This document shows positions 6,188 to 32,000 of a DNA stretch of 32,000 nt, piece after piece (the first letter of the stretch is position 1; every line of letters begins with the position of its first letter). The stretch comes from Candidatus Omnitrophota bacterium. GTDB taxonomy: Bacteria; Omnitrophota; Gorgyraeia; 2-01-FULL-45-10. The notes under the pieces are model-generated. The model worked only from the letters and a program-made list of their open reading frames with translations, had not been told where the DNA came from and ran no database searches. The DNA is taken from NCBI GenBank assembly GCA_023818895.1, contig JAMWCX010000002.1, positions 300,001 to 332,000 on the forward strand, in the 5' to 3' direction. The translations under genes and the position numbers were made by a program.

Positions 6188-6237
6188 ATTAAACTTAATG
6201 TTTATAATTATATCAAATATGGGGCTTTAAGGGTAGC

Positions 6238-6270
6238 AAAAAAACGCGCCCCCTCTACCGCGGAGAGGCG
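6238..6270 (-). terminator. Rho-independent terminator of the 79-aa ORF
   Basis: The minus strand reads CGCCUCUC-CGCGGUA-GAGGGGGCG (GC-rich stem of about 8 bp with one bulge and one G-U pair), followed by CG and U7 (plus A-run 6238..6244). The stem overlaps the TAG stop (6255..6257). Confidence 0.6.
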
Positions 6271-9368: not shown

Positions 9369-9377
9369 GGCCCATTC

Positions 9378-10235: not shown

Positions 10236-10236
10236 A

Positions 10237-11517: not shown

Positions 11518-11531
11518 ACTACGTAAAGTGG

Positions 11532-12263: not shown

Positions 12264-12294
12264 TTTGTCTCCTTATATTGATATTAACCTTGTA

Positions 12295-12323
12295 AATATA
12301 TCATATAAAGCACAAGAAGTCAA
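12295..12323 (-). promoter_or_regulatory. Internal sigma70-like promoter ahead of the FecR/barrel/OPX/BY-kinase genes
   Basis: On the minus strand: TTGACT (12323..12318), 17-nt spacer, TATATT (12300..12295). A ~25-nt leader with AAGGAG precedes the ATG at 12263. It lies in the largest intergenic gap (97 bp) of the locus. Confidence 0.55.
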
Positions 12324-12360
12324 ATGCAAGGATTAACTTTTTTATCTCTTAATTTTGCCG

Positions 12361-13026: not shown

Positions 13027-13029
13027 CCA

Positions 13030-13575: not shown

Positions 13576-13583
13576 AAAACGCG

Positions 13584-16868: not shown

Positions 16869-18112
16869 TTTGTCTCTGCCTCAGTCTTAACCCTAACCTC
16901 TGCCTTCCCCAGCCACAGATTTCTGTCTTCACCGGTGCGCGGATCATACGCGTCATTTACAAAACGTACACCTATTAGTGAAAGCCCTCCTTGTGACCTC
17001 AGCGGAAACTCATAGGTCGCAATCTGCGCCGTTTCAACAAAAGCCTCGCCTATCTCCTGGCCATCGACTTCCACCACCAGGTAGGGCCATATACTCTTAA
17101 AGGGGGAACCTTTGGCTTCTAAGATAAGGAGGCTGTCTCCTGCAGGTACATTCAGAATAGCATATGCAGTGGAGTTAGAGTATAAAACACCATTAGCATA
17201 ACTGATATTCTTGTAGTCTTTAGATATCAAAACCCAGTCGTCGGTTGCAACCACTCCGTTCTTGCGCCTCTGGTATCGCGCCTTGGCGCTTTCTAATATC
17301 TTTTCCCCGTCTTCTGCCAATACTGTCCTGCCTTCAACTCTTTTCCACGCCCCTGCTTCAAAAAACTTCTCTGCTTCAAGAATCTTTGATTTAATATCAG
17401 TAACTACCAAGGTGTCTTCTTTTATTGATCCGGCGATTTCTTTTCTGTACTGCCACAGATTATCAGCAGCTATAAATCTATACAGCTCGGTTGTATTTTG
17501 CCGCGCATCGGCTGTTATCTTTTTGAGCAAGTTAATATCCTTTGAAGCCCTCCAGACGGCGTCATAAACTTTCTGGGCCTGGTCCGGGCTTGTTTTCATA
17601 ATATAGGCAAGCCTTTCTGTCACGAAATTCCTCTCTTTGTCGTCTAGAGATTTCCAGAAGTTCATGCCCGTATAACCGATGGCGTAAGCTATGCTGTAAC
17701 CGTTTGGATCATGCAGGTATGCCTCATGAAGGTCTTTGAACGCTTCCTTAACAGACCTTCCGGCCTCGAGCCTGGCAAGGCCCCGTTTCAGGTAATATTC
17801 GGCATTCTCAGGATCAAGCGCAATAGCTTTATCGTAGAGCCCGATCGCCTTATTTAAAACATCTGTTTTATCGTAGAGATACCTGGCGGATTTTCGTAGA
17901 AATTCCGCATACCCACTTACATATTTCGAACTAAAGGGATTGAGTCTTATGGCTCCAACAAACCGGGAGGGAGCCTCTGACCACCTGTATTGTCCGGCAA
18001 GCTTCTCGGCTAAATTAAAGTTCAATTCTGCCAGAAGAGACACAATAAGGATAGCGGCGATTAAAAAAAATGCTATAAACAATATTAAATTAAAAATCCA
18101 TTTTAACGACAC
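16865..18112 (-). CDS. Membrane-anchored protein: TPR region + C-terminal beta-sandwich, carbohydrate-binding-module-like domain
   Basis: 415 aa. N-terminal TM (IFNLILFIAFFLIAAILIVSLL). TPRs (AIGLYDKAIALDPENAEYYLKRGLARLEAG..). The C-terminal ~130 aa end in ..WPYLVVEVDGQEIGEAFV..IGVRFVNDAYDPRTGEDRNLWLGKAEVRV. This resembles the F-x-N-D..D-R-N-L signature I associate with CBM-type domains (recognition only). Confidence 0.45.
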   Translation of the reverse strand: MSLKWIFNLILFIAFFLIAAILIVSLLAELNFNLAEKLAGQYRWSEAPSRFVGAIRLNPFSSKYVSGYAEFLRKSARYLYDKTDVLNKAIGLYDKAIALDPENAEYYLKRGLARLEAGRSVKEAFKDLHEAYLHDPNGYSIAYAIGYTGMNFWKSLDDKERNFVTERLAYIMKTSPDQAQKVYDAVWRASKDINLLKKITADARQNTTELYRFIAADNLWQYRKEIAGSIKEDTLVVTDIKSKILEAEKFFEAGAWKRVEGRTVLAEDGEKILESAKARYQRRKNGVVATDDWVLISKDYKNISYANGVLYSNSTAYAILNVPAGDSLLILEAKGSPFKSIWPYLVVEVDGQEIGEAFVETAQIATYEFPLRSQGGLSLIGVRFVNDAYDPRTGEDRNLWLGKAEVRVKTEAETK

Positions 18113-18120
18113 TTTTAATC

Positions 18121-19236
18121 TTACTTTCCCGATACCTTTTTATAAACCAATCTTGTTTGATCCGCTATAATATCCCAGTTATATTTCTCGGCGACCATCT
18201 CAATTTGCCTTTTCTTCTCCTCATCGCTCAAGGGTTTTAATGAAAACTCCCTTATCTTTTGAGCAAGCTCCTTAATATCGCCGGTTTTAAAATACCTATA
18301 TCTCGGCAAACCCACTGCCAAGTTGGCCGGAATATCCGACACGATGCAGGATAGCCCATAGCTCATGGCTTCAAGCAATGCTATAGAAAGCGCCTCGTAA
18401 TACGAAGGGAGGACAAAGATACCTGCGTTGCTATATAGTTCTTCTAAAGACGCACCGCTCAAGACACCTGTAAAGATGATATCGTTTCCCGTTTTTCTTT
18501 TAAGAGAGGTCGTGTAGCTATCCTGGTGTGTGGCATCACCCACTATAGCCAGCTTCCAATCCGCAAGTCCTGCCATCTTAAAGGCATCGATAAGGTCATG
18601 GAAACCTTTTTCGGGGACAAAACGGCCCACTGCCATAATATACCTATTTTTTTCCAATCCATATTTGGATATGGTATCTTTACTTTTTGAAATTTCTGGT
18701 ATATTAACACCGTTCGGGATAAATACCACATCCCGACGGTATTTCGTAGCAATGTCATCGGCCAACTGTTGGGAAACGCATATAACGGCATTTGAATACC
18801 TGCTTCCCAGGTATTCGCCAAACCGCAAAACCGCTTTGGCGACCCGGCCCCATTTTTTTCGCTTATAATCCGGCCCGTGATTCGTCATGACGACCTTCAT
18901 ACCTAACATCTTGGCAAGCGGAACAAAAAGCGATGGCCCAATCGCATGTATGTGTAATATGTCAGGGGACAGTTTTCGGGCAACTAAAACACCGATAAAG
19001 GTATGAAAGAAAGCTTCGAGAAATTTATTTCTTATACATGGCAAAATAATCAGTTTCACACCATCATATTCTCTCGTCGACTTATCGACATAGGATCGAC
19101 GCGCAAATACCGTTACATCACATCCTCTTTTGACGAGCAGAGGATAAAGGTTCTGGCTATGGACTTCCGGTCCACCCTGCACGGCGGGAAAGCCTCGTAT
19201 ACCCAATACCGCTATCTTCACATTCTCCAACGTCAA
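18121..19236 (-). CDS. GT-B glycosyltransferase, family 4 (DUF1972-type N-terminus)
   Basis: 371 aa. N-terminus KIAVLGIRGFPAVQGGPEVHSQNLYPLLVKRGCDVTVFARRSY. C-terminal GT1 motif FVLPSYYEALSIALLEAMSYGLSCIVSDIP. TTG start overlaps the upstream stop (TTGA). Confidence 0.85.
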   Translation of the reverse strand: MTLENVKIAVLGIRGFPAVQGGPEVHSQNLYPLLVKRGCDVTVFARRSYVDKSTREYDGVKLIILPCIRNKFLEAFFHTFIGVLVARKLSPDILHIHAIGPSLFVPLAKMLGMKVVMTNHGPDYKRKKWGRVAKAVLRFGEYLGSRYSNAVICVSQQLADDIATKYRRDVVFIPNGVNIPEISKSKDTISKYGLEKNRYIMAVGRFVPEKGFHDLIDAFKMAGLADWKLAIVGDATHQDSYTTSLKRKTGNDIIFTGVLSGASLEELYSNAGIFVLPSYYEALSIALLEAMSYGLSCIVSDIPANLAVGLPRYRYFKTGDIKELAQKIREFSLKPLSDEEKKRQIEMVAEKYNWDIIADQTRLVYKKVSGK

Positions 19237-20219
19237 TATCGCTGCCTTTTTTTAAAAAATTTATTCTCCAAAACCCAAAGAATCGGTTTTAGCGGATGGT
19301 CCCAGATGGCGGGAGCCGCGCTTCCTATCATCCAGCAGTTCTTCTTGCATTTTTGCACCATCTGTCGAATTTCTCTGGCCTTTCCGCCGCTCCATATCTC
19401 CTGCCAGGTCTGCTCCCTTAGATTTCCTATAGGCTGTTTTTCATCCATTCCATTACAGACAAGCACATCGCCCCAAGGATCTATGAAAAAACCGTTCTTG
19501 CCCATCTCGCATGGCAATAATCGCGGGTTACCGTTGATGTAATTTATGAGTCCGTAATTGAAGTAGGCCCTGAACCAGTCCTTCGGCCTTTTTGATCTCA
19601 GCAGAAGTTCGATCAATTTTTTGAATTCACCGCAAACCTTTTCCTTATCCTGGATCTTATTATCCCATTTGTGGAAATAGTGCGAGTTGTGAAGGGTAGC
19701 CGTGGCAAACTCATACCCCAGCGCCTCGGCCAGGCGGTATAATGAAATTAGGTCTTCACAGTTGATATCCTGCACCGTTGTGCTAAAACCGATATCCTTA
19801 AGTCCCATGGCACGCAACTCAAGAAGAGTCCTCAAGCCCCTATCAAATCCGTCGGGAATTCCGCGTATGGCGTCATTGGCTTTCGGAAGGCCCTCGATGC
19901 TTATCCGTAGTCCGATATCAGGAAATCGCCTGCACAATGATATAACCCTTTCGGTAAAATAGCCGTTTGTTATTACCACAAGTCTTCTTGTTTTCCTCCT
20001 TACAACTTCCACCAACTCCGGCAGGTCTTCCCTCACAAACGGCTCTCCACCGGTTATATTGGCAAAGAACATGCGCGGAAGCTTTTCCAGCGTCTCCACC
20101 CCGATTTCTTCGGACGCCTTGCTGGGATTGGCCCAGACATTACACATATTGCAGCGTGCGTTGCATCTGTATGTCACTATTATCGCGCCATGTAATTTCG
20201 CAGACATATGCCGCCTCAT
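19233..20219 (-). CDS. Radical SAM enzyme with C-terminal Cys-rich (SPASM/twitch-like) extension
   Basis: 328 aa. CxxxCxxC cluster in VTYRCNARCNMCNVW and GGEP motif (ITGGEPF). C-terminal cysteines: LLPCEMGKNGFFIDPWGDVLVCNG .. QKCKKNCWM. The start may instead be Met5 (20207), which has GAGG upstream. Confidence 0.8.
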   Translation of the reverse strand: MRRHMSAKLHGAIIVTYRCNARCNMCNVWANPSKASEEIGVETLEKLPRMFFANITGGEPFVREDLPELVEVVRRKTRRLVVITNGYFTERVISLCRRFPDIGLRISIEGLPKANDAIRGIPDGFDRGLRTLLELRAMGLKDIGFSTTVQDINCEDLISLYRLAEALGYEFATATLHNSHYFHKWDNKIQDKEKVCGEFKKLIELLLRSKRPKDWFRAYFNYGLINYINGNPRLLPCEMGKNGFFIDPWGDVLVCNGMDEKQPIGNLREQTWQEIWSGGKAREIRQMVQKCKKNCWMIGSAAPAIWDHPLKPILWVLENKFFKKRQRY

Positions 20220-20238
20220 TTTATAATACTATATTTCT

Positions 20239-21462
20239 TTATTTTTTAAGCGCCTCTTCGTATATCGCCATTAACCCTTCGTAGTGCTTCTCGCCATTGA
20301 ATTCATCTTCCACCATCTTCCTTGCGTTTTTGCCCATTTCTATGACTTTTTCCGGGCTTTTCGCAAGATATCGTATCTTAGAAGCCAGGTCATAGGCATT
20401 ACCGGGCTCGAACGTAATGCCAGTTTGACCGTCTTTGACCAATTCCGGAATGCCTCCTATGCGTGAACCTACCACAGGCTTACCGAAGGCAAAACTCTCC
20501 ATCACAGACATCGGAAAATTCTCGTAACATTCTGAGGCAATCACTGTAAAAATTGAGTTTTTTATTTCTCTTTTCAGATCCTCTCCTTTTTTATATCCCA
20601 AAAATTCGACGTTTGACGCCTTCTGGCTGTTCGCTTTTGATATGAGGGCGTCTTTGAGCGGCCCGTCACCGATTATCTTTAGCCTGGCTTCCTCAACATA
20701 TTTGAACGCATCTATAAGAGTAAATAATCCCTTCTCGCGAGATAGCCTGCCGAAATATACTACCGAACGGCTTTCAGATCCGTATACGGGTTCAAACTTC
20801 TCAACCATCAACGGATAAGGCAAGCGCGCAATCTTCCCTCTAAACCCCATCTCTTCGAGCTTATTTTTCATGAATTCGCTCGGTGAGATAAATACGCTGA
20901 TAGGGTCATAGATATGCAATATGTTATGGTGTAGATACATTTCAAGAGTGTTTATAAGGCTTTTGAGGTAGCTGTCTTTGGTGCATTTATTAATGAAACA
21001 TTGATAAAATCTCCCACCTTTGCATCTTTCGCAGGGTTTGCCGCCGGCAAGCATGGAATAGGAAGGGCATACCATTTTATAATCATGCATAGTCATAACA
21101 GCGGCTATGCCGCGCCTTTTAATAACGTTGAGGATAGAGGGAGATATCTGATGGGCGAAATTATTAAGATGGATTAGGTCCGGCCTATTGGAGGCGACAA
21201 GCTTTTCGAACTTCTTTTCAGCCTCAAACGAATAAAATACATTAAGCGCTAGCTCGATTTTCCGAAAAATACCGGCGCTTTCATTAAAATCAATATTTTC
21301 CACGAAGTATCTCTGATACTCGTATGGCGGATTAAGCGGATGGTTCATGCCCCAAAATATTACCTCATGACCTTTCTTCTTTAACAACTCCCCTGTGGCA
21401 AGGGTTGCGGTTGCATCCCCGCCTTTAGCATATAGGAATTTGTTTATAAGAAGGATTTTCAT
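20239..21462 (-). CDS. GT-B glycosyltransferase, family 4, with Cys-cluster insertion
   Basis: 407 aa. N-terminus MKILLINKFLYAKGGDATATL. Cys cluster: CPSYSMLAGGKPCERCKGGRFYQCFINKC. C-terminal motif ASECYENFPMSVMESFAFGKPVVGSRIGGIPELVKDGQTGITFEPGN. Confidence 0.88.
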   Translation of the reverse strand: MKILLINKFLYAKGGDATATLATGELLKKKGHEVIFWGMNHPLNPPYEYQRYFVENIDFNESAGIFRKIELALNVFYSFEAEKKFEKLVASNRPDLIHLNNFAHQISPSILNVIKRRGIAAVMTMHDYKMVCPSYSMLAGGKPCERCKGGRFYQCFINKCTKDSYLKSLINTLEMYLHHNILHIYDPISVFISPSEFMKNKLEEMGFRGKIARLPYPLMVEKFEPVYGSESRSVVYFGRLSREKGLFTLIDAFKYVEEARLKIIGDGPLKDALISKANSQKASNVEFLGYKKGEDLKREIKNSIFTVIASECYENFPMSVMESFAFGKPVVGSRIGGIPELVKDGQTGITFEPGNAYDLASKIRYLAKSPEKVIEMGKNARKMVEDEFNGEKHYEGLMAIYEEALKK

Positions 21463-22109
21463 TTTTTCTCCGCCACGACAAAAAGGGATTCAGAGATACC
21501 TAATAATAATGGCCGTATGGACCTGATGCTGAAGCCCAGCGACTTGAATTCATCACGTATCTGACCGAAGGTTACCGGGTACCACATGACTTGGCGCAAG
21601 TTGCGGTCTCTTCTCCGCAATATATTCTGCAGCGAATTCTTATGATAGTATACAAAAATAGCCATCTCCTTTGATACCCTCATAAGTTCCGCTATTATCC
21701 TGCGGCGTGCGTCGGGTGGCGTGTGCCCCAAAAGTCTCAGGCATACGGCCGCGTCAAAGCTGCCATCCTCGATATTCAATGATTCCGCATTGCCGGAAAT
21801 AAAATTGATCTCGCTGCCATATCCCGCGTTCTCTATTTTCTCTGACGCTTCGTCCATCATCGCCTGCGATACATCAGCCCCTGTCACCTTATAGCCTTTT
21901 TTTGCAAGATAAAGGCTAAGCCTGCCGGTACCGCAAGGTATATCCAATATCCGGGCACCCTTCCCTATTCCATTACCTGAGAGTAGCTTATAAATTAAGC
22001 TCTTTTCAGCCATATCGACGAGCCGGCCTTTGATCGAAAGAAACCTGCCCCTATCATAACTTCTGGCAACATTCTTTTCCTGGTATGCGGTCTTGGCTTT
22101 GTAATTCAT
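21459..22109 (-). CDS. Class I SAM-dependent methyltransferase
   Basis: 216 aa. Motif I ILDIPCGTGRLSLYLAKKGYKVTGADVS. Post-I/II motifs GNAESLNIEDGSFDAAVCLRLLGH. ATGA overlap with the upstream GT. Confidence 0.88.
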   Translation of the reverse strand: MNYKAKTAYQEKNVARSYDRGRFLSIKGRLVDMAEKSLIYKLLSGNGIGKGARILDIPCGTGRLSLYLAKKGYKVTGADVSQAMMDEASEKIENAGYGSEINFISGNAESLNIEDGSFDAAVCLRLLGHTPPDARRRIIAELMRVSKEMAIFVYYHKNSLQNILRRRDRNLRQVMWYPVTFGQIRDEFKSLGFSIRSIRPLLLGISESLFVVAEKK

Positions 22110-22112
22110 ATC

Positions 22113-23318
22113 TTACCCATTTTTTGAAAACAGTTCCAGATACCGTCTTGCTATATCCTGCATATTATAATCTTCCCTGATCTTCCTGATGCAGTTTTCT
22201 TTAAAAGAATCGTGCGCGTATGCGATGGCAAACATCTTATCCACAAGATTATGCTCATCCACAATATAACCTGTCTTTCCGTCTTCGATTATTTCGCCTG
22301 AGCCCGGAACGTCTGTAGTAATGATGGGGACCCCGATGGACATGAATTCGATCCAAGTAAGCGGTGGCGCGATTATGCAGTTTTTATTAAGGATCGGTGA
22401 AAGAAATACATCGGATGCCTGTTTAAGGGTATCAAAGAAATCCTTAGCTGTAGGCCTTACATATATGCCGGCAGCTGGCTCATCAAAAGCCCGGAAAGAG
22501 CTTTCGAACGTTTCCGGTTTAAAAGCAAAATATATCGTCGCCTTTAAGCCTTTTGCTAAAGCTCGCCTGGCGCAGTCCAGCAAAAACAGGAAATCCTGCC
22601 TCTGAACCTGTTGTATATAGCCTGCCCAGACAAACAGGGGCCGATCCGCCGGCAGGCCTGCCTTTTCTTTAGAAGACGCTTTATCCCCTACGGTACCTAT
22701 GCGTTCAGGCGACACGCCCCACGGAATATGCTTTACGCTGCGATCATTCAAACCGAATTTTACAAGCCAGTCCGCAAAAGCGCGCGAATAGGCTACAATG
22801 GACGCTCCGGATAGGTCATATGAAAGCTTAAGATAAGGATGATAAAGGAAAGGGTTCCTACCCTGGTGCGCGATCGCTGAAACCGACATACCGGCACCAA
22901 GCTTATTGATCGTTTTTAATAAACCTCTGTTTGACGGGCCAAAATTATCCATGAGGTGCACGTGCGAAAACGGCTCTTCCGCATAAAGTGAACCAAGCTT
23001 TTTCATTATCCTATGCGCGCTGATTGTCTTTTCGACTATTCCCCACAGAAGCGGGAAGGCGCCCTCCCGCCAGAATATGCGCCGGCGGTAATGGACGTCA
23101 GGAGTTTCCACAAGCTGAGGGAGTATATAGTCGATCGTTACGCGGCACTTCCCAACGAAAAGCTCTTCTCTTTCAAGATGATGTTTGCGCACGGATATGA
23201 TGGAGACCCTGTCCAGGCCGGAAGCGATCAGCCTTATCGCGTCACTCCAGAAGTTCTTATCGCCGCTGCTTTTTTCCGGCTGATAATTCAATCCAGCAAA
23301 GACGACATGTCTACACAT
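22113..23318 (-). CDS. GT-B glycosyltransferase (family 1/4-like)
   Basis: I trimmed the track ORF (22113..23435) to Met40 (MCRHVVFAGLNY..). The longer form would overlap the upstream gene by 125 nt, whereas Met40 gives an 8-nt overlap with GGAGAG upstream. C-terminal motif: EFMSIGVPIITTDVPGSGEIIEDGKTGYIVD. Confidence 0.78.
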   Translation of the reverse strand: MCRHVVFAGLNYQPEKSSGDKNFWSDAIRLIASGLDRVSIISVRKHHLEREELFVGKCRVTIDYILPQLVETPDVHYRRRIFWREGAFPLLWGIVEKTISAHRIMKKLGSLYAEEPFSHVHLMDNFGPSNRGLLKTINKLGAGMSVSAIAHQGRNPFLYHPYLKLSYDLSGASIVAYSRAFADWLVKFGLNDRSVKHIPWGVSPERIGTVGDKASSKEKAGLPADRPLFVWAGYIQQVQRQDFLFLLDCARRALAKGLKATIYFAFKPETFESSFRAFDEPAAGIYVRPTAKDFFDTLKQASDVFLSPILNKNCIIAPPLTWIEFMSIGVPIITTDVPGSGEIIEDGKTGYIVDEHNLVDKMFAIAYAHDSFKENCIRKIREDYNMQDIARRYLELFSKNG

Positions 23319-24615
23319 AGTTATTGCCGCTCTCCTTAAGCACTCTGCTATAAACAGCCGCCAAGAGAAAATAGAACGTATAGCTTGAAGAATCATACCT
23401 CCACACGAGGTCATAGACCGGCCCCAGAATAGCATAATAGGCCCACATCCCTATTAGCGCTGTTGATATGACAGATAGATACGCATCCCTGAGCAGCACA
23501 TTGGCTTTCCTTATCATCATTATGAGATTCAATTGTATGAAATAATAAAGGCCCAATCCTACTAGACCAACGTCAGTTAAAATAGCCGCCAACTGGCTTA
23601 CGGCCGGCACCTTTATCGCAGAATACATGACCCCTTTCTGCATGACGCCGCCGAAGAAGGAGCTTCCTGGCCCTAAACCCAGCATTATCCTGTATGGATC
23701 TCCCTTTATTGCATTCCACACATAAACTAAAGCGCCTATTCTCGATTGGCGGCTCAGCTCATAATCTGATATTTGAGAGGACGCCAGCCCGAATATTCTC
23801 AGGACCTTATTGAGATATAAGGCTAGCAGATTACCGCTGACCCTGTATACCCTGCCCCACGACATGATTACAAAATACAACAAAATTAGCAAAAGGATTG
23901 CGATGCAAATATGGATGAATACTTTTTTTCGACCCTCATCGCGCTTGAACGCGAAGTAACTGATAAGCAGAATGATCACCGGTGCCGTAAAAATAAACGC
24001 TTTTATTTCTCCGAAAAGCGCTATTATAAAAAAAGCGGCTATCGGAAGCAGATAAAACCATCTGAACTTCTTTATTAACACAAACGAAACTATGAGGGAT
24101 GTCGCATAAGACATATATATACCGAGATCAAGGGTCCCCCACGGCCCTAACGACCATGAGATATTATCCCATCCTATGCCGAGTATTAAATATCTGTAAA
24201 AGCACTCAGGTATCTGTATTATCAAAAGAAATAAAAAGAGTGTTATGAACTTTTTCATAGTACTTTCACATATGTCCATATTTACAAAAGCCATAAATAA
24301 CACCGGATATCTTATATAGACCATAAGATTACCGAGGAATTCATACAGTCCTGTCTCATTGGCAACAGCGGATACCATGGACCAGATGATAAACAACCCC
24401 AGAGGCACGGCTATGCAGGTCATCCTGAAAGGCTTGCCCTCTGCAGAGGTCCTCAGGAATTGGAGAAAGAAAACAACCGGTATGATGACAAAGCTGATCC
24501 ATCTCAAAAAGATGTAATTTTCCAGGACACCGCTTGGCGCGGTCTGGCGGGGTATGTACCACAAGATCGGCAGCAGTATTATTGATACCTTTTCCAGAAA
24601 ACCTGCTTTCGCCAT
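23311..24615 (-). CDS. Polytopic membrane protein, probable Wzy-type repeat-unit polymerase
   Basis: 434 aa, about 11-12 TM helices. Large loop with SRQSRIGALVYVWNAIKGDPYRIMLGLGPGSSF, a degenerate Wzy_C-like R..W..P..G.G.G motif. It lies between the flippase and the GTs. Confidence 0.6.
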   Translation of the reverse strand: MAKAGFLEKVSIILLPILWYIPRQTAPSGVLENYIFLRWISFVIIPVVFFLQFLRTSAEGKPFRMTCIAVPLGLFIIWSMVSAVANETGLYEFLGNLMVYIRYPVLFMAFVNMDICESTMKKFITLFLFLLIIQIPECFYRYLILGIGWDNISWSLGPWGTLDLGIYMSYATSLIVSFVLIKKFRWFYLLPIAAFFIIALFGEIKAFIFTAPVIILLISYFAFKRDEGRKKVFIHICIAILLLILLYFVIMSWGRVYRVSGNLLALYLNKVLRIFGLASSQISDYELSRQSRIGALVYVWNAIKGDPYRIMLGLGPGSSFFGGVMQKGVMYSAIKVPAVSQLAAILTDVGLVGLGLYYFIQLNLIMMIRKANVLLRDAYLSVISTALIGMWAYYAILGPVYDLVWRYDSSSYTFYFLLAAVYSRVLKESGNNYV

Positions 24616-24658
24616 AGGTTGGAGCTCACCCTTTCAGGCAAGGCACCTTTACCTGTGA

Positions 24659-26086
24659 TCAAGCCTTGCCGAGAGACGATCCTTTTTCGCCACGCAAAAT
24701 GCCTACGATCAGACTGATCGATCCGCGATTAATATAAGAGATATAGGCAAGGATTAAAGATGCTGAAAAAATATAAAGCCACAAGCCCAGCTGAAATATT
24801 AATATTGATACAATGAAAACGATGCCTAACTTTAAAAACATTATTTTGTCTACAGCTATTTTCACTTTATCTTTCGATAAAATAACCCTAAGGAAGAGCG
24901 CGGAGATAGAAGCCACGAGAACGCTGAATGTCGTTGCCGCAATGCCATACGTCGGAACCAACAGTATATTCAATATAACGTTAATTGCCGCCGCGATCAA
25001 GGCTGAGTAAAATATCACCATCGTATTCTTATGTATCTGGAATATGATCTCATAGAACCAGGCAAACGTCAGTATCAGAATGGCCAATAATAGATAAGGT
25101 AGATATATATGAGCGCTCAGATATCTCGGGTCTACCATGATGTGAAAAAACGGCTTCAAAAACACTAAGCATACTATCACTATGGAACCGCCTGTCAGGA
25201 CCAGCTTATTAAATATCTTTGAGAAGAAGGTCTCCTTGTCCGGATGGGAAGCGCTGTCCAGCGCGGAGTCCTGCCATGCCATGTAAAAGATCAGGCTTCC
25301 TATATACATGACGGATGGTATTTTGTCAGCAACGGCATATATGCCTACCTCGTCAAGGCCTTTATAGATAGACAGTATGTACCGTCCGGAAATGCGTATG
25401 AACCACCAGCTTATGGTCGCAGGTAGAAGGGGCAGGGAATATTTAAGGATCGGCGTAATTACCGCCATATTGAAGTCCATCGGATTGTAGAATTTTATCA
25501 GGTCGGCTTTTTTGACCTTATACAGCAGGCTTATGGCATGCGCCAGGATCGCGGCTATAAAAAAACCGGAAACGCCCTGCCCGAAATACCCGATAAAAAT
25601 AATATTAAATACAAACATGCTGCTGGTAAGTATTATACCTGACTTGGAATACAACACATTTTTTCCGAGTGCCCTGACGATCTGCAGAAAACAGGCATCG
25701 ATGACTTTGAGGGCTATGTAAAAAACAACCAGAAATAAAGAGCTATAAGGAATGATCCCTCTTAAATAAGGCGCCCCTAGCCAGCAAAGGATGACAAAAA
25801 TAAACACATTGATGAGGATAACATTTACGACAGATGATATGGTAGCGGTCCTTGCCTGCAGCCTGGTCTCCTCGATTACGAATCTATATGCGCCGTCCGT
25901 GAGCCTCAAGGATATGACCGAGGCCAGAAGTATGGACCCTGTCACCACAAGGTCTATGAAGCCATACTCTGCCCGCGAAAATACTTTTGTGTAGAAAGGC
26001 AGCAGCAGAAAGCTGACGAAGCTTGCGCCGAATGTGCCTAACCCATATATAAAAATGTCTTTAATTAATCTCTTCTCTCTCAACAT
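24659..26086 (-). CDS. wzx: Wzx-type oligosaccharide flippase (MOP superfamily)
   Basis: 475 aa, about 12-14 TM helices. N-terminus LIKDIFIYGLGTFGASFVSFLLLPFYTKVFSRAEYGFIDLV is typical of Polysacc_synt flippases. Confidence 0.85.
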   Translation of the reverse strand: MLREKRLIKDIFIYGLGTFGASFVSFLLLPFYTKVFSRAEYGFIDLVVTGSILLASVISLRLTDGAYRFVIEETRLQARTATISSVVNVILINVFIFVILCWLGAPYLRGIIPYSSLFLVVFYIALKVIDACFLQIVRALGKNVLYSKSGIILTSSMFVFNIIFIGYFGQGVSGFFIAAILAHAISLLYKVKKADLIKFYNPMDFNMAVITPILKYSLPLLPATISWWFIRISGRYILSIYKGLDEVGIYAVADKIPSVMYIGSLIFYMAWQDSALDSASHPDKETFFSKIFNKLVLTGGSIVIVCLVFLKPFFHIMVDPRYLSAHIYLPYLLLAILILTFAWFYEIIFQIHKNTMVIFYSALIAAAINVILNILLVPTYGIAATTFSVLVASISALFLRVILSKDKVKIAVDKIMFLKLGIVFIVSILIFQLGLWLYIFSASLILAYISYINRGSISLIVGILRGEKGSSLGKA

Positions 26087-26110
26087 AGTATCTGGTTGAT
26101 GTTAGAACGG

Positions 26111-27052
26111 TTATGATATCTTCCTTAACACCACTCTTAAAAATTCCCGGTTGCCTTCGTCACTATCGTTTGTGTAATCTATTTTTTCTACCGCACGGCT
26201 TCCGAATAGCAGTGACTTTATATTTATTAATGTCTTAAAGACAGCCGGAAAGCAGGAAATCAGATCGCGTAATCTTCTCTTTGCAGCCGCAAGAGTGCCT
26301 GATGTGATGCGCAAAACATCCCCTGCCGTTGATACTCTGAGCATCATGAGGGAGTCTGAAAAATTTATTTTAAAAAAATATGAAATGCTATCTTTATCAA
26401 AAAAGGTTATATGCGGCTCGTGATAATAAGGCTGATTTCCTCTGTGGATCAGGACCTCTGTAATATCGTTGGGGGTCTCAACTATCATTATCCCGTCTTT
26501 TTTGAGACCCTTCAAAACCGTATAGATATATTCTTTCGGATCCTTCAAGTGCTCCAATACGTGAGATAACAGGACTACGTCGTATTGGCCTTTATCCGGA
26601 GAGGCAATATTTACTTCGGGAGGATATTCGATGGTCTTGTCGATCTCATCTGTGAAAAGGCTGCAATCCCTGTAGGCTTTTTTAAACTCGGCCAAGTTAA
26701 AGCCGTAACCGGCGCCAAGCTCAAAAACAGCGGGAGTCTTTACAGATTCCGGCAGATATTTTTTAGCGAGGCCGACAAGCGCTTTGCCCCTCGCCCGGAA
26801 TCTGGAAACATCACCGCTTGATAATTTAATACCGATCTTGGCCTTATCTCTGTATATATTCTCATAATAATAATCTAATTTACTCTTTTCAATTTCCTGA
26901 TGGCATACCTGGCAGAGACCGCAATTGCGGCATTTCATTATACGCAGACCTGGAAACATCTGCTTAAAAAGGCGTTCTTTGTAAATATAGTCGGTTATTT
27001 TCGAGAATTCTTTACCACCGCACGATACGCATTGCATCCTGCACGCCCCCAT
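26111..27052 (-). CDS. Class I SAM methyltransferase with N-terminal Zn-ribbon (sugar C-/O-methyltransferase-like)
   Basis: I trimmed the track ORF (26111..27103). Its first 17 codons are the stem-loop of the giant gene's terminator. The likely start is Met18 (27052) or Met23 (27037, MQCVSCGG..). Zn ribbon: CVSCGG..x28..CRNCGLCQVC. Motif I VFELGAGYGFNL. Also YDVVLLSHVLEHLKDP. Confidence 0.8.
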   Translation of the reverse strand: MGACRMQCVSCGGKEFSKITDYIYKERLFKQMFPGLRIMKCRNCGLCQVCHQEIEKSKLDYYYENIYRDKAKIGIKLSSGDVSRFRARGKALVGLAKKYLPESVKTPAVFELGAGYGFNLAEFKKAYRDCSLFTDEIDKTIEYPPEVNIASPDKGQYDVVLLSHVLEHLKDPKEYIYTVLKGLKKDGIMIVETPNDITEVLIHRGNQPYYHEPHITFFDKDSISYFFKINFSDSLMMLRVSTAGDVLRITSGTLAAAKRRLRDLISCFPAVFKTLINIKSLLFGSRAVEKIDYTNDSDEGNREFLRVVLRKIS

Positions 27053-27059
27053 AATACTG

Positions 27060-27068
27060 ATTATATCA
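27060..27068 (-). promoter_or_regulatory. Candidate extended -10 promoter element for the polysaccharide operon
   Basis: The minus strand reads TGaTATAAT (TG 27068..27067, TATAAT 27065..27060) immediately after the terminator U-tract. The -35 is poor (ATTAAT). Met18 ATG (27052) lies 7 nt downstream of the -10. Confidence 0.35.
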
Positions 27069-27069
27069 C

Positions 27070-27103
27070 AAAAAATGCGCCCATTAATCACTAATGAGCG
27101 CAT
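27070..27103 (-). terminator. Strong rho-independent terminator of the giant repeat-protein gene
   Basis: The minus strand reads AUGCGCUCAUUA-GUGAU-UAAUGGGCGCAU (12-bp stem with one G-U pair and a 5-nt loop, 27103..27075) followed by UUUUU-G-U-G (27074..27067). It begins 29 nt after the TAA stop at 27133..27135. Confidence 0.7.
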
Positions 27104-27132
27104 TTTTGGAATTTCTACTTACTGTTGTTTTA

Positions 27133-30100
27133 TTAACGCCTGTCAGTCAACCCTGTCGGACCGCCTGCCAGGGATGACGTAAGAGTATAACCGCCCTCAG
27201 CCGTTGTCGCGCCCGGAGGTGTTACCGAGTTCTGCACATCAAGGCGCTGTGAGACCTCCAAGTCCGGACTCAATGTTGAAAGCTGGGTCCACGCATTGTT
27301 GGAGTACTTGTATAAGCCTTTGGCGCCGAAATCGGCTATTATGTCATAGGTATTATTATTTACTGTCAGCATGAACGAATCAGCATCCCAGCCTGAAAGC
27401 TTCGTCCATATGCTATTAGCGTATTTGTATAAGCCATTGACGCCGAAGTCAGCGACAATGTCATATACGCCATTGTTGAGCTGCGAAAGCGCAAAATACT
27501 CGGCATTCCACGAAGTGAGCCTGGTCCAGCTGCTGGCGGCGTACTTGTATAAACCATTGATACCAAAATCCGTTATGATGTCGTAACTGCCGTCGGTGCG
27601 TCTGTCGGTCAGCGTGAAAGAATCGGCGTTCCAACCGGAAAGTTTCGTCCAGCTGTTATTTGAGTATCTGTAGAAACCGCTACCGCCGAAATCTGCCACT
27701 ACGTCGTAAGCATCGTTGTACAGTTTGGATACCGTAAAACAATCGGCGTTCCAGCCGGAAAGTTTCGTCCAGCTGTTAACAACGTATTTGTATAAGCCGT
27801 TGCCGCCAAAATCAGTTACGATGTCGTAACTGCCGTCGGTGCGTCTGTCGGTCAGCGTGAAAGAATCGGCGTTCCAGCCTGAAAGCTTTGTCCAGCTGCT
27901 GCCGGAATACTTGTAGAAGCCGATAGTACCGCCAAAATCACTTATTATGTCATACGTACCGCCATAAAGGCTTGTAAGCATGAAGAAATCTGCGTTCCAG
28001 CCGGTAAGCTTGGTCCATGTATTGTTGGAATACCGGTGCATGCCATTAAGGCCGAAATCTGCCACTACATCGTACTTGTCGTTATTAAGGCCACTAAGCA
28101 TGAAGGAATCGGCATTCCATCCGGAAAGCTTGCTCCAGCTATTATTGGAATAGCGATAGAATCCGCTGCCTCCGAAATCGACGATAGCGTCATAGCTGTT
28201 ATCAGAGCGCTTCTTTGACAGCATGAATGAATCGGCGTTGTAAGCGGAAAGCTTGGTCCAACTAATACCATTGTATTTAAAGAATCCATTAATGCCAAAG
28301 TCGGCAAATATATTCTCGCTGGTGTATTGCTTGACTCCCGTATCGTATTCCACCATTACCAGGTTGCCCAAGCTGTCGTATTCCTCGAATACAATGTCAC
28401 CGTCCACGATACCGTCCTGGTCGAGCATCCAGTGGTATCTGAGCGTGGTACCGTTCGTGAAGTACTCTTTCGTCTCGTAGATAACGTGCGCATCAGTATA
28501 GAAGGTGTCGAGCTTGCGGTCGGTCGTGGACGGGAAGTACTCTCTCGTAAAGTAGTAGCCGGTATCGAGGACTTCCTTGATCAGAAGGCCGGAGCTATTG
28601 TATTCCCTGAACGTTACGTCGCCGTCCGGAGTCGAATCCTGGTCGAGCATCCAGTGGAATTTGAGAGTGGTGCCGTCCTCGAAATACTCCTTCGTCTCAT
28701 ATACCACGTGCACATCTGTATAGAAGCTGTCGAGCTTGCGGTCATTGGTTGAGGGGTAGTACTCCCTGGTCATGTAGTATCCGGTGCTGAGAGTCTCCTT
28801 TATAAGGCGGCCGTAATCGTCCGTAAGGTCTCCCTGCGTGCCGCCGTCATCGACGGTCGTATCATCATATTCTGATACAGTGCCATCTGCCGTAGTCTTC
28901 GTATGTATCCTTCCTGACGGATAGTGGGTATAGATAGCGCCGCCGCCGATGCCCGTAAGATACCCGATCAGCGTATAGCCGGAGGTGCTCACCAAACCAA
29001 AAAGTCTCCCCCTGTAGGAACTATTATTGACTGGATCTTGGAGCTCTACCGCGATAAACTCCTGAGATGCGAATTCATCGCGTAGATCATATATATCGAG
29101 CGCCCTGTGAAGTTCCGCGCCTGCGGCAAGGTTGGAGAGAAATTCCGATAGATTGTCAATTCCCCCTATCCCGATCACTATTTCCTGTAGTATCGCGACA
29201 TATTCACTATTACTCATCAATTGTTCATCTATGGGTGTTCCGTACATGAGCGAGAAGTCGGCCTGGAGGTTGCTTGCAACGATGGCGTCGTGGACAACGC
29301 CAGGCTCTGATAAAGTGGCGAGGTAGCCGGAAAGCGTATAACCAGGCCCGTTTACGACGCCGGAAAGATATGCGCGGTAAGTATCGGGATGCGCGACAGG
29401 ATCCTGATCAGAAACCGCGATGCCCGACGCTGCCGCGAATGCGACGCGCAGGTTATACGTATCGAGCGCCAAGTGCAGCTCGGCGATCCCGGCAAGTTCT
29501 GTAAGGAAACTGTTGAGCGTATACGCGGGCTCATGATCATTGATGTAGGCGGCTATTCCCTGTATAAGATTTGTATAATCACCATTGGTAAGAATCTGCT
29601 CGGCGACGGGAGTGCCGTACATCAGCTCAAATTCATCCCGCAGCTCATTTGTACCCAGCGCATCATGCAACGTGACGGTATCGGTAAGAGACTGTAAGAA
29701 CGCTATCTCGTTGGCCTGGTTATAGCCGCCTGCCATGACTATCGCCGCAAGGTAACTGCGATACTCACCAGTGATGGCGATCTGGTCAGCGACAGAGATA
29801 CCTGAGCGTATAGCGAACTCTTCGCGCAGGTCATTGTCTATTATGGCCTGATGCAGATCGGCCATCCTTGAAAGCTCGGTTGTGAAGGTCGTCACCGTAT
29901 AAGTCGGATTGTCGAGCATATAACTTGCTATTCCGGAAAGTATATAGAGATAATCGTTGCTTGATGCCGGAGGCGTTGCAACAGCTACACCGTACATTAG
30001 AAGGAAGTCCGCCTGGAGATCGGCTGACGCCACAAGGGCCTCATGTATATCCGCCATGTGCGAAAGCGCACCGGTAAAATCGCTCACGCCATAACTTCCG

Positions 30101-32000
30101 CTATTGGCGACTATATAACTTGCCACGCCTGATAAGATAGCGCGGTAATTGTCGCTCTGGACCGAGGCGGTCGTGTCAGGAGTCACGCCATAGACAGTGT
30201 TGAAATCGGCCCTCAAACTGGCATCCGCCAGAAGCGCCTGGTGTATGTCCACTATGTATGGCACTCCGTTAAGTATATCAGTGACGGTAATTCCTGGATT
30301 AGCGAGAACATAAGCTCCGATGCCGGAAAGAACAGTCCTATAATCTTCACTGGTGACGGTGGCCGTGGTGTCAGCCGTCGTGTTATACGCGATGTTGAAA
30401 TCCGCCCTCAGGCCCGGATCGGCCAGAAGCGCGGCATGTATATCCTGCATATAAGGAATGGCACCCAAAATATCATCTATAGTGGTGCCGGCGTTGGCCA
30501 GTATGTAACTGGCTATGCCAGAGAGCGCGTAGCGGTAGTTTTCGCCGGTTATATTGGCTGTGGTGTCGGCCGTTACACTATATATAACCTCAAAGTCCAC
30601 TCTCAAAGCGGCATCCGCAAGAAGCGCCGCGTGTAGATCGGCCATGATGGGAAGCGCGTCCAGAAGATCGGAGGTCGTAAGGCCATTATCCAGAATATAG
30701 GCAGCCATTCCGGCGAGCGCGTAGCGGTAAGATTCTGTTGTAACATTTGCTGTAGTATCAGCGACGACATTATACACAACGGTGAAGTCCGCCTGAAGAT
30801 CGGCATCGGCAAGAAGGGCCGCGTGCAGATCCGCCATTACTGGTATCGCATTAAGTATATCGTTAGCAGTCAGCCCCTCGTCGAGAACATAGCTTGCGAT
30901 GCCTGAAAGGGCATAGCGATATGCCTCGGTAGTGACGTTTGCGCCTGAGTCGGCTATAGTATTATAGACAGTATTAAAGTCGGCTCTTAAGCCGGCGTCG
31001 GCAACCAGGGCCTGATGGATATCGGCCATGATGGGTATGGCGCTCAGGATATCATTTATTGTCATAGGAGGATTGTCTAAAACATAGCTTGCGATCCCAG
31101 AAAGTGCGTAGCGGTAAGATTCGGTGGTCACGGATGGTGTAGTATCCGCGGTGACGTTATATACGACGTTGAAGTCCGCGCGCAAAGACGCATCCGCAAG
31201 AAGCGCGGCGTGTATATCTGCCATCGGCGTCAGTGCGCCGACAAAGTCGCCTACCGTATAGCCGGCGTTATCGAGGATATAATCAGCGGTGCCGGAAAGC
31301 AGATTCCTATAATTTTCGTTTGTCACAGGATCCTGGTTAGCCGGCGCTATGCCGTAAATAACCTCAAAATCATTCTGTATATCAGCTGACGCGGTGATGG
31401 CGGCGTCGAGGTCTGCCATGATGGGAAGCGCCTGCGTAAACCGCAGGACCGTGTAACCGGGTGTTGTCACGATGTAACGCGCAATACCGGAAAGCGCATT
31501 TGCATAATCAGGGTTATTTACCGGGTCCTGGTCGGCGACCGCTATGCCATATATAGTCTCGAAGTCAGCTTGAAGATCCGGATCCGCTGAAATAGCGGCG
31601 TGCAGATCATCTATAATAGGAAGGCTTGCCAGGAAGTCATTCACGGTCATCGGAGGATTCGCAAGAATGTAATTGGCCACACCCGAAAGTATATTACGAT
31701 AGTCAGCGTTCGTAACCGGGTCCTGGTCGGCGACCGCTATGCCGTAGACAGAGGCAAAATCCTCTCCCACCCCTGTAGGATCTGCGGCAAGCGCCTCGTG
31801 AAGATCGGCCATGAGCTCAAGCGCATCCATGAATATAGCTACGGTATATCCGGCGTTATTCAGGATAAAGCTCGCAATACCAGAAAGGTTAAAGCGGTAG
31901 GCATCATTCGTAATGGGATCCTGGTCGGCCGGCGCAATGCCGTATATTGTCTCGAAATCGGCCTGCAGAAGAGCATCTGCCTGGAGGGCTTCATGAACAT
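27133..32000 (-). CDS. Giant modular repeat protein, C-terminal >=1,620 aa (partial; N-terminus beyond right edge)
   Basis: The track ORF starts at the first in-window Met (31830). The frame stays open to nt 32000, reading ..VHEALQADALLQADFETIYGIAPADQDPITNDAYRFNLSGIASFILNNAGYTVAIF-MDALEL.., which continues the same repeat. Three repeat classes plus a 45-aa tail. No family confidently recognised. Confidence 0.9.
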   Translation of the reverse strand, partial: VHEALQADALLQADFETIYGIAPADQDPITNDAYRFNLSGIASFILNNAGYTVAIFMDALELMADLHEALAADPTGVGEDFASVYGIAVADQDPVTNADYRNILSGVANYILANPPMTVNDFLASLPIIDDLHAAISADPDLQADFETIYGIAVADQDPVNNPDYANALSGIARYIVTTPGYTVLRFTQALPIMADLDAAITASADIQNDFEVIYGIAPANQDPVTNENYRNLLSGTADYILDNAGYTVGDFVGALTPMADIHAALLADASLRADFNVVYNVTADTTPSVTTESYRYALSGIASYVLDNPPMTINDILSAIPIMADIHQALVADAGLRADFNTVYNTIADSGANVTTEAYRYALSGIASYVLDEGLTANDILNAIPVMADLHAALLADADLQADFTVVYNVVADTTANVTTESYRYALAGMAAYILDNGLTTSDLLDALPIMADLHAALLADAALRVDFEVIYSVTADTTANITGENYRYALSGIASYILANAGTTIDDILGAIPYMQDIHAALLADPGLRADFNIAYNTTADTTATVTSEDYRTVLSGIGAYVLANPGITVTDILNGVPYIVDIHQALLADASLRADFNTVYGVTPDTTASVQSDNYRAILSGVASYIVANSGSYGVSDFTGALSHMADIHEALVASADLQADFLLMYGVAVATPPASSNDYLYILSGIASYMLDNPTYTVTTFTTELSRMADLHQAIIDNDLREEFAIRSGISVADQIAITGEYRSYLAAIVMAGGYNQANEIAFLQSLTDTVTLHDALGTNELRDEFELMYGTPVAEQILTNGDYTNLIQGIAAYINDHEPAYTLNSFLTELAGIAELHLALDTYNLRVAFAAASGIAVSDQDPVAHPDTYRAYLSGVVNGPGYTLSGYLATLSEPGVVHDAIVASNLQADFSLMYGTPIDEQLMSNSEYVAILQEIVIGIGGIDNLSEFLSNLAAGAELHRALDIYDLRDEFASQEFIAVELQDPVNNSSYRGRLFGLVSTSGYTLIGYLTGIGGGAIYTHYPSGRIHTKTTADGTVSEYDDTTVDDGGTQGDLTDDYGRLIKETLSTGYYMTREYYPSTNDRKLDSFYTDVHVVYETKEYFEDGTTLKFHWMLDQDSTPDGDVTFREYNSSGLLIKEVLDTGYYFTREYFPSTTDRKLDTFYTDAHVIYETKEYFTNGTTLRYHWMLDQDGIVDGDIVFEEYDSLGNLVMVEYDTGVKQYTSENIFADFGINGFFKYNGISWTKLSAYNADSFMLSKKRSDNSYDAIVDFGGSGFYRYSNNSWSKLSGWNADSFMLSGLNNDKYDVVADFGLNGMHRYSNNTWTKLTGWNADFFMLTSLYGGTYDIISDFGGTIGFYKYSGSSWTKLSGWNADSFTLTDRRTDGSYDIVTDFGGNGLYKYVVNSWTKLSGWNADCFTVSKLYNDAYDVVADFGGSGFYRYSNNSWTKLSGWNADSFTLTDRRTDGSYDIITDFGINGLYKYAASSWTRLTSWNAEYFALSQLNNGVYDIVADFGVNGLYKYANSIWTKLSGWDADSFMLTVNNNTYDIIADFGAKGLYKYSNNAWTQLSTLSPDLEVSQRLDVQNSVTPPGATTAEGGYTLTSSLAGGPTGLTDRR
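27268..28305 (-). repeat. Class C: about 9 tandem units of 38-42 aa (about 120 bp), beta-propeller-blade-like
   Basis: Unit: DFGxxG(L/F)Y(K/R)YxxxxWTKLSGWNADSFxLxxxxxxxYD(I/V)(I/V)x. DFG motifs occur at aa 1177, 1218, 1258, 1298, 1340, 1379, 1421, 1461 and 1500 of the track ORF. Confidence 0.85.
27577..27876. repeat. 57-bp perfect direct repeat (27577..27633 and 27820..27876), 243 bp apart, inside class C
   Basis: Both copies read gatgtcgtaactgccgtcggtgcgtctgtcggtcagcgtgaaagaatcggcgttcca. A further 38-bp pair with one mismatch lies at 27621..27658 and 27741..27778. Confidence 0.85.
28336..28821 (-). repeat. Class B: two and a fraction copies of a 74-aa (222-bp) unit with YD-repeat-like motif
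   Basis: GRLIKETLSTGYYMTREYYPSTNDRKLDSFYTDVHVVYETKEYFEDGTTLKFHWMLDQDSTPDGDVTFREYNSS aligns with GLLIKEVLDTGYYFTREYFPSTTDRKLDTFYTDAHVIYETKEYFTNGTTLRYHWMLDQDGIVDGDIVFEEYDSL, followed by the partial copy GNLVMVEYDTG. Confidence 0.85.
28936..32000 (-). repeat. Class A tandem repeat: 16 visible units of 59-66 aa (about 177-198 bp)
   Basis: Consensus: (M/I)ADLHxALLADxxLRADFxxVYxVxADTTxxVTxExYRxALSGIASYxLxNxGxTxxDxLxAxP. Counted by hand from the translation (aa 1-965 of the track ORF plus one unit upstream of Met1). Confidence 0.9.

Follow-up and report, generated by a model that had tools for sequence, protein, structure and literature searches.

Members of the Omnitrophota are uncultured and mostly ultra-small bacteria, and their large extracellular proteins, which are thought to mediate attachment or predation, are almost entirely unannotated. 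At one edge of the stretch analysed here, a window of 32,000 nucleotides from a Candidatus Omnitrophota contig (JAMWCX010000002.1, positions 300,001 to 332,000), a giant reading frame built of three kinds of repeats (classes A, B, and C) runs out of view beside a polysaccharide locus. What kind of protein does this gene encode, and is it tied to the neighbouring polysaccharide? Our results suggest that it is a stalked extracellular fibre, exported by the Sec pathway, that would cleave or bind glycans. We give this reading a probability of about 0.55.

The visible part of the gene is free of stops on the minus strand from its TAA codon to the window edge, 27136-31998 (-), which gives 1,621 residues by translation. 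The listing of open reading frames showed 27133..31830 only because it started at an internal ATG; the frame itself continues past the edge. All 1,621 residues are 100% identical to residues 1327-2947 of P0020 (NCBI MCM8791039.1), a protein from a Candidatus Omnitrophota metagenome-assembled genome (MAG) encoded on a contig of 442,820 bp. Window residue 1 is therefore residue 1327 of P0020, and the window holds the last 55% of the protein. P0020 is very acidic and has 2,947 amino acids (aa) and about 316 kDa. It opens with a start codon and the sequence MKKIVGLVCLVMLFVMVTTHAALA, and its N-terminus bears a signal peptide of the Sec type. The identity to this complete protein demonstrates that the reading frame is complete and rules out a pseudogene. 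The modules of P0020 follow each other in the order signal peptide, three N-terminal repeats of ~70 aa (N repeats), an (alpha/alpha)6 head, 24 class A units, YD-like units (class B), a predicted nine-blade propeller (class C), and a C-terminal module of 45 aa. The signal peptide, the three N repeats, the head (a DUF3131 domain of ~475 aa), and eight of the class A units lie outside the window. Searches of Pfam, NCBIfam, and PDB sequences with the visible part returned nothing significant; when 5.8 billion proteins were searched by word index, only two relatives turned up, and a genome scan of GTDB representatives yielded only one, at locus L003, with 61% identity.

These results agree closely with an earlier note on this DNA, which had been made from the letters of the window. 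It had read the frame as open to the window edge over about 1,620 codons and had described, from N- to C-terminus, at least 16 copies of an acidic ~65-aa repeat, two or more YD-like units of 74 aa, about nine repeats of 40 aa, and a 45-aa tail. The window contains 16 class A units, two complete class B units preceded by a degenerate lead-in, nine class C units of 39-42 aa, and a tail of 45 aa. The note had also placed the N-terminus, any signal peptide, and possibly further repeats outside the window, which is where P0020 has its Sec-type signal and the additional class A units. Recovery of the full frame, a check that the note had proposed, yielded P0020 with no in-frame stop, and the flanks of the orthologues contained no secretion system. 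The note had seen no RTX nonapeptides, LPXTG, PEP-CTERM, or obvious C-terminal domain (CTD) of the type IX secretion system (T9SS), and this was upheld. Regular-expression searches for GGxGxD nonapeptides and LPxTG came back empty, as did the one for a PEP motif close to the C-terminus, and none of the NCBIfam models for sorting signals matched the window protein. An RTX adhesin exported by a type I secretion system (T1SS) was hence rejected, given the zero nonapeptides and the Sec-type signal peptide. Anchoring through LPXTG or a T9SS CTD was rejected as well, on the negative regular expressions and the lack of an NCBIfam or Pfam match to the tail.

By sequence comparison, the head of P0020 is homologous to glycosidases of the SGL clan (DUF3131/Glycoamylase type). 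It matches Pfam DUF3131 at 32.5 bits (cut-off 20.3), and the heads of orthologues match Glycoamylase (PF10091) at 62-69 bits. Among PDB sequences, it matched 8wy1 (E 3e-29), the cyclic beta-1,2-glucan synthases 8rf9 and 8rf0 (E 1e-19), 8xuj (E 9e-11), and 5gzh, an endo-beta-1,2-glucanase of glycoside hydrolase (GH) family GH144 (E 2e-3). The 8WY1 structure is that of the cyclization domain (GH189) from the Thermoanaerobacter italicus synthase (PMC10834661), and the 8wy1-type, GH144, and related families together form the beta-1,2-glucanase clan (PMC12102758). The general acid of these enzymes is a glutamate, namely E1356 in the 8wy1 enzyme, E211 in CpSGL, and E239 in XcSGL (PMC10834661, PMC12102758). 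Since the 8wy1 construct spans 1005-1591 (PMC10834661), its chain residue 353 corresponds to the acid/base E1356. In P0020, E600 of the motif 'YTEIRPT' aligns with this residue, within a local alignment segment that is weak taken alone. Glu600 and 142 of the about 475 head columns are invariant across six family members, which fits a retained active site, and the heads of different loci share 41-57% identity.

The head differs from the known members of the clan in two ways: the C-terminal quarter of its barrel precedes the rest, and repeats totalling about 2,200 residues are fused to it. The part that matches 8wy1 chain 451-556 and Glycoamylase 105-220 comes first, and the part that matches 8wy1 chain 19-411 and DUF3131 2-124 comes second. 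The C-terminal part of the models (P0020 ~277-401) thus lies ahead of the N-terminal part (~426-677), and the twelve barrel helices would depart from their canonical N-to-C order. This swapped order suggests a circular permutation, and the head appears to be a permuted member of a recently defined clan. An enzymatic activity, together with its substrate, is what we would infer from this homology.

Behind the head comes the class A array. A hidden Markov model (HMM) seeded from the window detected its 16 visible units with hmmsearch, twelve of them at E 1e-25 to 1e-37; the four nearest the C-terminus are degenerate (E 3e-14 to 3e-6). The consensus of the unit is xADLHxALxAxxLRxDFxxxYGIxVxxQxxxNxxYxxxLxGIAxYIxxxxGYxxxDxLxxL. 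The acidity claimed earlier is pronounced, with 199 D+E versus 40 K+R and a pI of 4.05 over the array of the full-length protein. At the DNA level, Tandem Repeats Finder reported no tandem array across class A, only a single 30-bp repeat with a 16-bp period at 31009-31038, which indicates that the units are old and diverged. AlphaFold2 modelled four class A repeats, from an input alignment made of the window and P0001 repeat blocks, with a predicted local distance difference test score (pLDDT) of 95.8 and a predicted template modelling score (pTM) of 0.88. Each predicted unit consists of three helices and a loop of 12 residues; every boundary between units is spanned by one long helix, which predicts a continuous rod and not beads on a string. 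The class A array is thus confidently modelled as a continuous helical rod. The central loops of the array (~30000-31200, minus strand) are rich in threonine and carry NxT motifs (e.g., ADTTANVTTE).

No counterpart to this unit was found among described families or structures. Foldseek searches with the class A model gave best E values of 0.36 in the PDB and 0.68 among the predicted viral structures of BFVD, a class A profile found nothing below E 0.39 among PDB sequences, no NCBIfam model matched, and when 31 class A units were scanned singly against Pfam no family matched more than two of them. DUF6642, which reached 28.3 bits when summed over repeats, was discarded as a candidate: only two of the 31 units match it, at E of 0.026 or above, and no single stretch passes. 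Matches to Phage_TAC_5, tape-measure proteins, and BFVD tail proteins (BFVD E above 0.6) were likewise dismissed as weak, low-complexity helical noise. A profile of the 31 units retrieved only 52 of 1.84 billion representative proteins at E of 1e-3 or below, with P0020 at the top, and all 12 of the organism-named class A proteins that were checked come from Candidatus Omnitrophota MAGs. A few class A units also sit within much larger Omnitrophota proteins, namely P0051 (7,107 aa), P0053, P0056, and P0027. Judged by these profiles, class A is a previously undescribed repeat restricted to the Omnitrophota. Being phylum-restricted, confidently modelled, and without an analogue in PDB or BFVD structures, it is a candidate for a new Pfam family.

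The two repeat classes that follow are of different kinds. Class B resembles the RHS/YD repeats (PF05593) in its tyrosine-rich units, its 'EY(N/D)SxGxL' motif, and its sub-threshold matches, which reach 15.3 bits in the window and 19.5 bits in P0077 (cut-off 22). It differs from them in its 74-aa unit, its two to four copies, and the lack of an RHS core or shell. Beta-hairpins are predicted for it at low AlphaFold confidence, and homologous units occur in P0001 (four), P0044 (four), and P0004. Class C, whose units each start at DFG (consensus YDIvADFGxnGlYKYsnnsWTKLSgWNADSFxL), is also visible as a DNA-level array with a period of 123 bp and 70% matches in Tandem Repeats Finder. In an AlphaFold2 model of the last 601 residues it forms nine four-stranded blades at a pLDDT of about 85-97, so that the predicted fold is a nine-bladed beta-propeller. 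Foldseek matched this model to generic propellers, with the Photorhabdus lectin PLL5 (8q83) on top.

In its predicted four-stranded blades of ~40 aa and its FG motif, class C is similar to the FG-GAP/VCBS propellers of the integrin alpha N-terminal type (PF01839, PF13517). It differs from them in having nine blades instead of seven, in matching none of the models, and in lacking the DxDGDG calcium loop. The class C HMM matches six units of P0002 (1777-2010) that contain the FG-GAP_3 match of that protein (1930-1981), and it also detects units of P0017, for which an hhalign comparison gave a probability of 70% (E 4e-5). Both P0002 and P0017 carry an 'ADFGxxGLWxY..W..L' unit and match Pfam FG-GAP models, and hhalign found no similarity between class C and the canonical FG-GAP repeats of P0044. 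Where P0002, P0008, and P0017 have 'DxDGDG', class C has 'LSxxxxDxxYD'. Class C is probably best described as an offshoot, without the calcium loop, of an "ADFG-GLW" propeller type that borders on FG-GAP. The statement of the earlier note that neither class A nor class C belongs to a named family therefore stands for class A against Pfam, NCBIfam, and the PDB, and is softened for class C by this indirect link through homologues. The profile and structure searches that it had recommended left class A without a named family or a Foldseek analogue, class B with sub-threshold RHS matches, and class C as a predicted propeller.

The protein ends in a module with the motif EVSQRLDVQN…YG…AEGGFTFTSALAGGP, which closes at least nine distinct family members whatever module precedes it. 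It follows class C in P0003, P0004, P0024, P0041, and P0002, class B in P0044, class A in P0023, and another module in P0077, and is thus an independent C-terminal module. AlphaFold predicts a short helix followed by disorder, and the tail has no hydrophobic or transmembrane (TM) segment; a role as the 'velcro' strand of the propeller was rejected on account of this disorder. The tail matched no NCBIfam or Pfam model and no known sorting signal, its profile retrieved nothing at E of 10 or below from 5.8 billion proteins, and a narrower alignment found two loci in metagenomes. Being family-specific and behaving like a shared targeting or anchoring element, it is a candidate for a new one.

These modules recur in a defined order in related proteins: signal peptide, three N repeats, head, a further N repeat, class A array, and optionally class B or C. 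This order was found in P0020, P0023, P0024 (cluster P0071, P0073), P0032 (cluster P0076, P0077), and P0043, and the tail was seen in those whose C-terminus is present, namely P0020, P0023, P0024, and P0077, the complete member of the P0032 cluster. Orthologues of 1,381-1,811 aa have the same architecture, and signal peptides are found in relatives too. The modules are shuffled in P0001, P0002, P0041, and P0044. Three of these, P0001, P0041, and P0044, have no head yet contain class A together with class B or C, and P0041 and P0044 also carry the tail. In P0002 (locus L002), an insert of ~370 aa (~1400-1770) takes the place of the N-terminal head and lies between the class A and class C arrays; it has no Pfam match and, by eye, its 'SDGSW' motifs resemble an alpha/alpha-toroid of the prenyltransferase/terpene-cyclase type.

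Based on this architecture, we postulate that the class A rod would serve as a spacer between a head that cleaves or binds glycans and the C-terminal propeller and tail, which in turn may attach the protein, by binding or anchoring, to a polysaccharide, to the envelope, or to another cell. Gram-negative bacteria have giant repeat adhesins such as LapA, SiiE, and MpIBP, acidic extracellular proteins in which a long extender separates terminal functional domains. The giant protein shares with them the long repeat extender between terminal domains, the acidity, and the putatively extracellular location. However, its extender is predicted to be alpha-helical where theirs is Ig-like, its Sec signal lies at the N-terminus where they carry a T1SS signal at the C-terminus, and it lacks RTX nonapeptides, with no T1SS genes near the orthologue loci. 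An enzyme or lectin on a repetitive stalk follows a familiar logic; our finding thus extends known biology and does not overturn it.

The protein also invites comparison with the giant proteins already described in the Omnitrophota. These include Archaeovorin and Dockerin-type proteins, the latter with examples of at least 30,000 aa, which have HEAT or dockerin/TSP3 repeats and predicted membrane anchoring (10.1101/2023.11.21.568195). Large Omnitrophota proteins have been proposed to mediate adhesion to target cells or degradation of their surface polysaccharides (PMC10066038; 10.1101/2023.11.21.568195). The window protein shares with them the phylum, the large and putatively extracellular type, and, in some much larger proteins, class A units. 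At 2,947 aa, however, it is at least 10 times smaller, and no TM helices, HEAT repeats, or dockerin/TSP3 repeats were found in it by Pfam. In two preprints on Omnitrophota giant proteins, a term search found neither DUF3131 nor Glycoamylase; the Nature Microbiology survey, searched with terms other than these two, does not mention glycoside hydrolases or exopolysaccharide.

The second part of our question concerns the neighbouring locus. Analysis with Pfam and NCBIfam confirmed it as the 18-gene Wzx/Wzy-dependent locus that had been described before, co-oriented with and downstream of the giant gene. In the orthologous locus L004, what comes after the giant gene is a remnant of the window's 6113-6406 reading frame and then AP_endonuc_2 and LeuRS, which in the window lie 21 kb further on. 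The segment corresponding to window ~6400-27100, that is, the polysaccharide locus together with PilZ and HTH-REC genes (6600-7696), is absent from the equivalent position (L004 11364-12243). Relative to L004, the ~21-kb polysaccharide locus of the window is therefore an island, as would be expected of variable glycan genes placed between flanks that are conserved. A survey of homologues for linkage, another check proposed at the outset, found a Wzx/Wzy-type cluster directly downstream in four of the six loci whose downstream sequence could be read (the window, L005, L006, and L009). At L009, P0044 is followed by Wzx and then by five orthologues collinear with the window and 42-71% identical to it, in the order glycosyltransferase family 1 (GT1), methyltransferase, GT4, radical SAM/SPASM, and GT4. 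At L005 and L006, tail-bearing genes are followed by Wzx/Wzy-type clusters of differing gene content. Another giant gene lies downstream at L002, and at L007 the orthologue P0071 is followed directly by a secreted paralogue (15424-16812) with YD-like and class C propeller units, without head or rod.

The upstream flank of the window gene was deduced from its orthologues. In three of their loci the order is MlaE, MlaF, MlaD, an optional FecR, CHASE2/SpoIIE, and GAF/HD-GYP. The flanks of the orthologue loci contain housekeeping and signalling genes, with no secretion system, pilus, or T1SS genes.

At the junction with the polysaccharide locus, the strong terminator that had been attributed to the giant gene is indeed present. 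Its hairpin, which folds at -20.3 kcal/mol (z = -4.1), was missed by a consensus scan and by eye is far longer than the short stem-loop sought there. Of the earlier statement that the gene is co-oriented with the polysaccharide locus and only 29 nt away from it, the orientation held and the distance was an artefact. The ATG at 27103, from which the gap of 29 nt derives, sits within the terminator stem. A start of the methyltransferase gene at 27052 or 27037 is more plausible, which leaves a spacer of 80-95 nt. Right after the terminator U-tract lies TGATATAAT, which the -35/-10 scan did not report. It is located 8 nt before the ATG at 27052 and may be the promoter of the polysaccharide operon. 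The spacing between this box and the ATG hints at a separate, possibly leaderless, start of that operon. Collectively, these observations suggest that the giant gene would be transcribed by itself, from a conserved place on the chromosome that in most cases borders a variable Wzx/Wzy island. The recurrent chromosomal association of giant genes with such islands is of interest in its own right.

How well does a stalked fibre account for these data? Several observations weigh against it. For the giant protein we identified neither an anchor or lipobox nor an outer-membrane partner for secretion, so that surface attachment is speculative. The head appears permuted and might be a binding module devoid of catalysis, class B and the tail were modelled at a pLDDT below 50, and the class C repeats of the window had no direct match to Pfam propeller or FG-GAP models even at E 10. 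In addition, the terminator separates the giant gene from the polysaccharide locus, and the L004 orthologue has no such locus, AP_endonuc_2 and LeuRS coming next. The earlier suggestion of a giant adhesin or matrix scaffold deployed together with the polysaccharide is supported in part. A large secreted repeat protein is what we found, but not simply an adhesin or scaffold, because of its N-terminal (alpha/alpha)6 domain of the beta-1,2-glucanase clan. Deployment together with the polysaccharide is in line with the recurrent linkage in four of six loci and is countered by L004, where the locus is dispensable.

More tentatively, the giant protein might be an accessory of the polysaccharide locus that acts on the adjacent Wzx/Wzy product, either as a hydrolase that, while tethered, would trim the polymer or set it free, as a matrix scaffold by way of its propeller, or as a glycoprotein decorated by the Wzy_C protein. 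Hydrolases such as PslG, BcsZ, and AlgL are encoded within their polysaccharide loci, and the giant gene is co-oriented with and directly upstream of such loci in the window, L005, L006, and L009, the last with its collinear orthologues. The glycosidase-type head and the threonine-rich loops with NxT motifs, in a protein encoded near a Wzy_C gene, would suit such a role. On the other hand, the orthologue of L004 does without any polysaccharide locus, P0044 lies beside the locus most similar to that of the window and has no head at all, and a strong terminator and a separate -10 box stand between the two units. The glycosyltransferase content, moreover, varies widely between loci while the head stays 41-57% identical, which fits a conserved gene that flanks a variable island. 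Slightly less probable is a factor for contact with host or prey, in which the rod would project the head or the propeller towards a partner cell to bind or degrade envelope glycans such as beta-1,2-glucans. The origin of all organism-named class A proteins from Omnitrophota MAGs and the class A units of the much larger proteins of this phylum (P0051, P0053, P0056, and P0027) point in this direction, as do published proposals of a part in attachment and cell-wall degradation for large proteins of the Omnitrophota and for flanking glycoside hydrolases (PMC10066038; 10.1101/2023.11.21.568195; 10.64898/2026.06.07.730766). Yet no pilus or secretion genes accompany the gene, whose flanks are of housekeeping and signalling type, and the protein has none of the HEAT repeats, dockerins, and TM helices of those giant proteins.

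The aligned catalytic glutamate and the 142 invariant head columns in six members speak against a non-enzymatic adhesin or matrix scaffold with a head that is only a lectin, and we consider it unlikely, even though the protein is repeat-rich, acidic, and secreted, its propeller resembles lectin propellers in Foldseek, its head is apparently permuted, and the three headless relatives retain class A with class B or C, two of them with the tail. A decaying pseudogene or an artefact of assembly across repeats is effectively refuted. Repeats often break assemblies, several relatives are cut off at contig ends, and for P0020 an exact-sequence look-up yielded no recorded contig. Against this stand 2,947 uninterrupted codons with a start codon and signal peptide, orthologues of the same architecture, and class A units whose DNA sequences have diverged, no tandem array being reported across them, which argues against a repeat collapse or expansion. 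Returning to the stalked glycan-active or glycan-binding fibre, its boldest form would make the class A rod and the 45-aa module a new Omnitrophota-specific surface fibre system, with the module as sorting or anchoring signal, the permuted head at the far end, and the fibre coupled to the hypervariable Wzx/Wzy island through polymer tethering or through O-glycosylation of the threonine-rich loops by Wzy_C. We regard this combination as quite improbable.

Table 1 Features of the giant gene, its product, and its surroundings (window coordinates unless stated otherwise)
Feature	Position	Strand	Basis
LeuRS	2528-5011	-	79% identity to L004 13088-14380
AP_endonuc_2	5013-5855	-	74% identity to L004 12243-13088
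18-gene Wzx/Wzy-dependent polysaccharide locus, neighbour of the giant gene, co-oriented, downstream	7719..27052	-	Pfam, NCBIfam
Wzy_C-family gene	15633-16868	-	Pfam
TGATATAAT, extended -10-like box right after the terminator U-tract (candidate promoter)	27060..27068	-	Read from sequence
Intrinsic terminator hairpin, 19-bp stem and U-tract	27066..27110	-	RNA fold, -20.3 kcal/mol, z = -4.08
TAA stop of the giant gene	27133..27135	-	Translation, sequence reading
C-terminal module, ~45 aa, PDLEVSQRLDVQN ... AEGGYTLTSSLAGGP	27136..27270	-	Alignment of family C-termini
Class C, nine units of 39-42 aa, each from DFG	27271..28326	-	Alignment, AlphaFold
Linker and class B, degenerate lead-in, then two 74-aa YD-like units (about 28351-28794)	28327..28923	-	Alignment
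Class A array, 16 visible copies of a ~65-aa acidic repeat, predicted all-helical	28924..32000	-	HMM, AlphaFold2
Head domain, DUF3131/Glycoamylase (alpha/alpha)6, ~475 aa	P0020 ~271-745 (outside window)		Pfam and PDB sequence match

The gene content of the polysaccharide locus comprises methyltransferases, Wzx, GT1 and GT4 glycosyltransferases, a radical SAM/SPASM protein, a TPR protein that bears a family-60 carbohydrate-binding module (CBM60), Wzy_C, a priming phosphotransferase, SurA_N, HAMP, and FecR proteins, a BBP2_2 porin, Wza, and Wzc, and one product of 434 aa without a Pfam or NCBIfam match. A PEP-CTERM/exosortase system was considered and rejected: only sub-threshold matches to XrtA-associated NCBIfam models were obtained, and no exosortase was detected in the locus. 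The Wzy_C product belongs to a family of O-antigen-ligase/PglL-like proteins, and the giant protein could be glycosylated. The TPR protein (16865-18112, minus strand) bears its CBM60-like module, of a calcium-dependent carbohydrate-binding type, at the C-terminus and has a homologue with 35% identity at L006 7525-8121. The radical SAM/SPASM gene (19233-20219, minus strand), which is unusual for a Wzx/Wzy locus, is the best conserved of the cluster, with 71% identity to L009 11524-12501.

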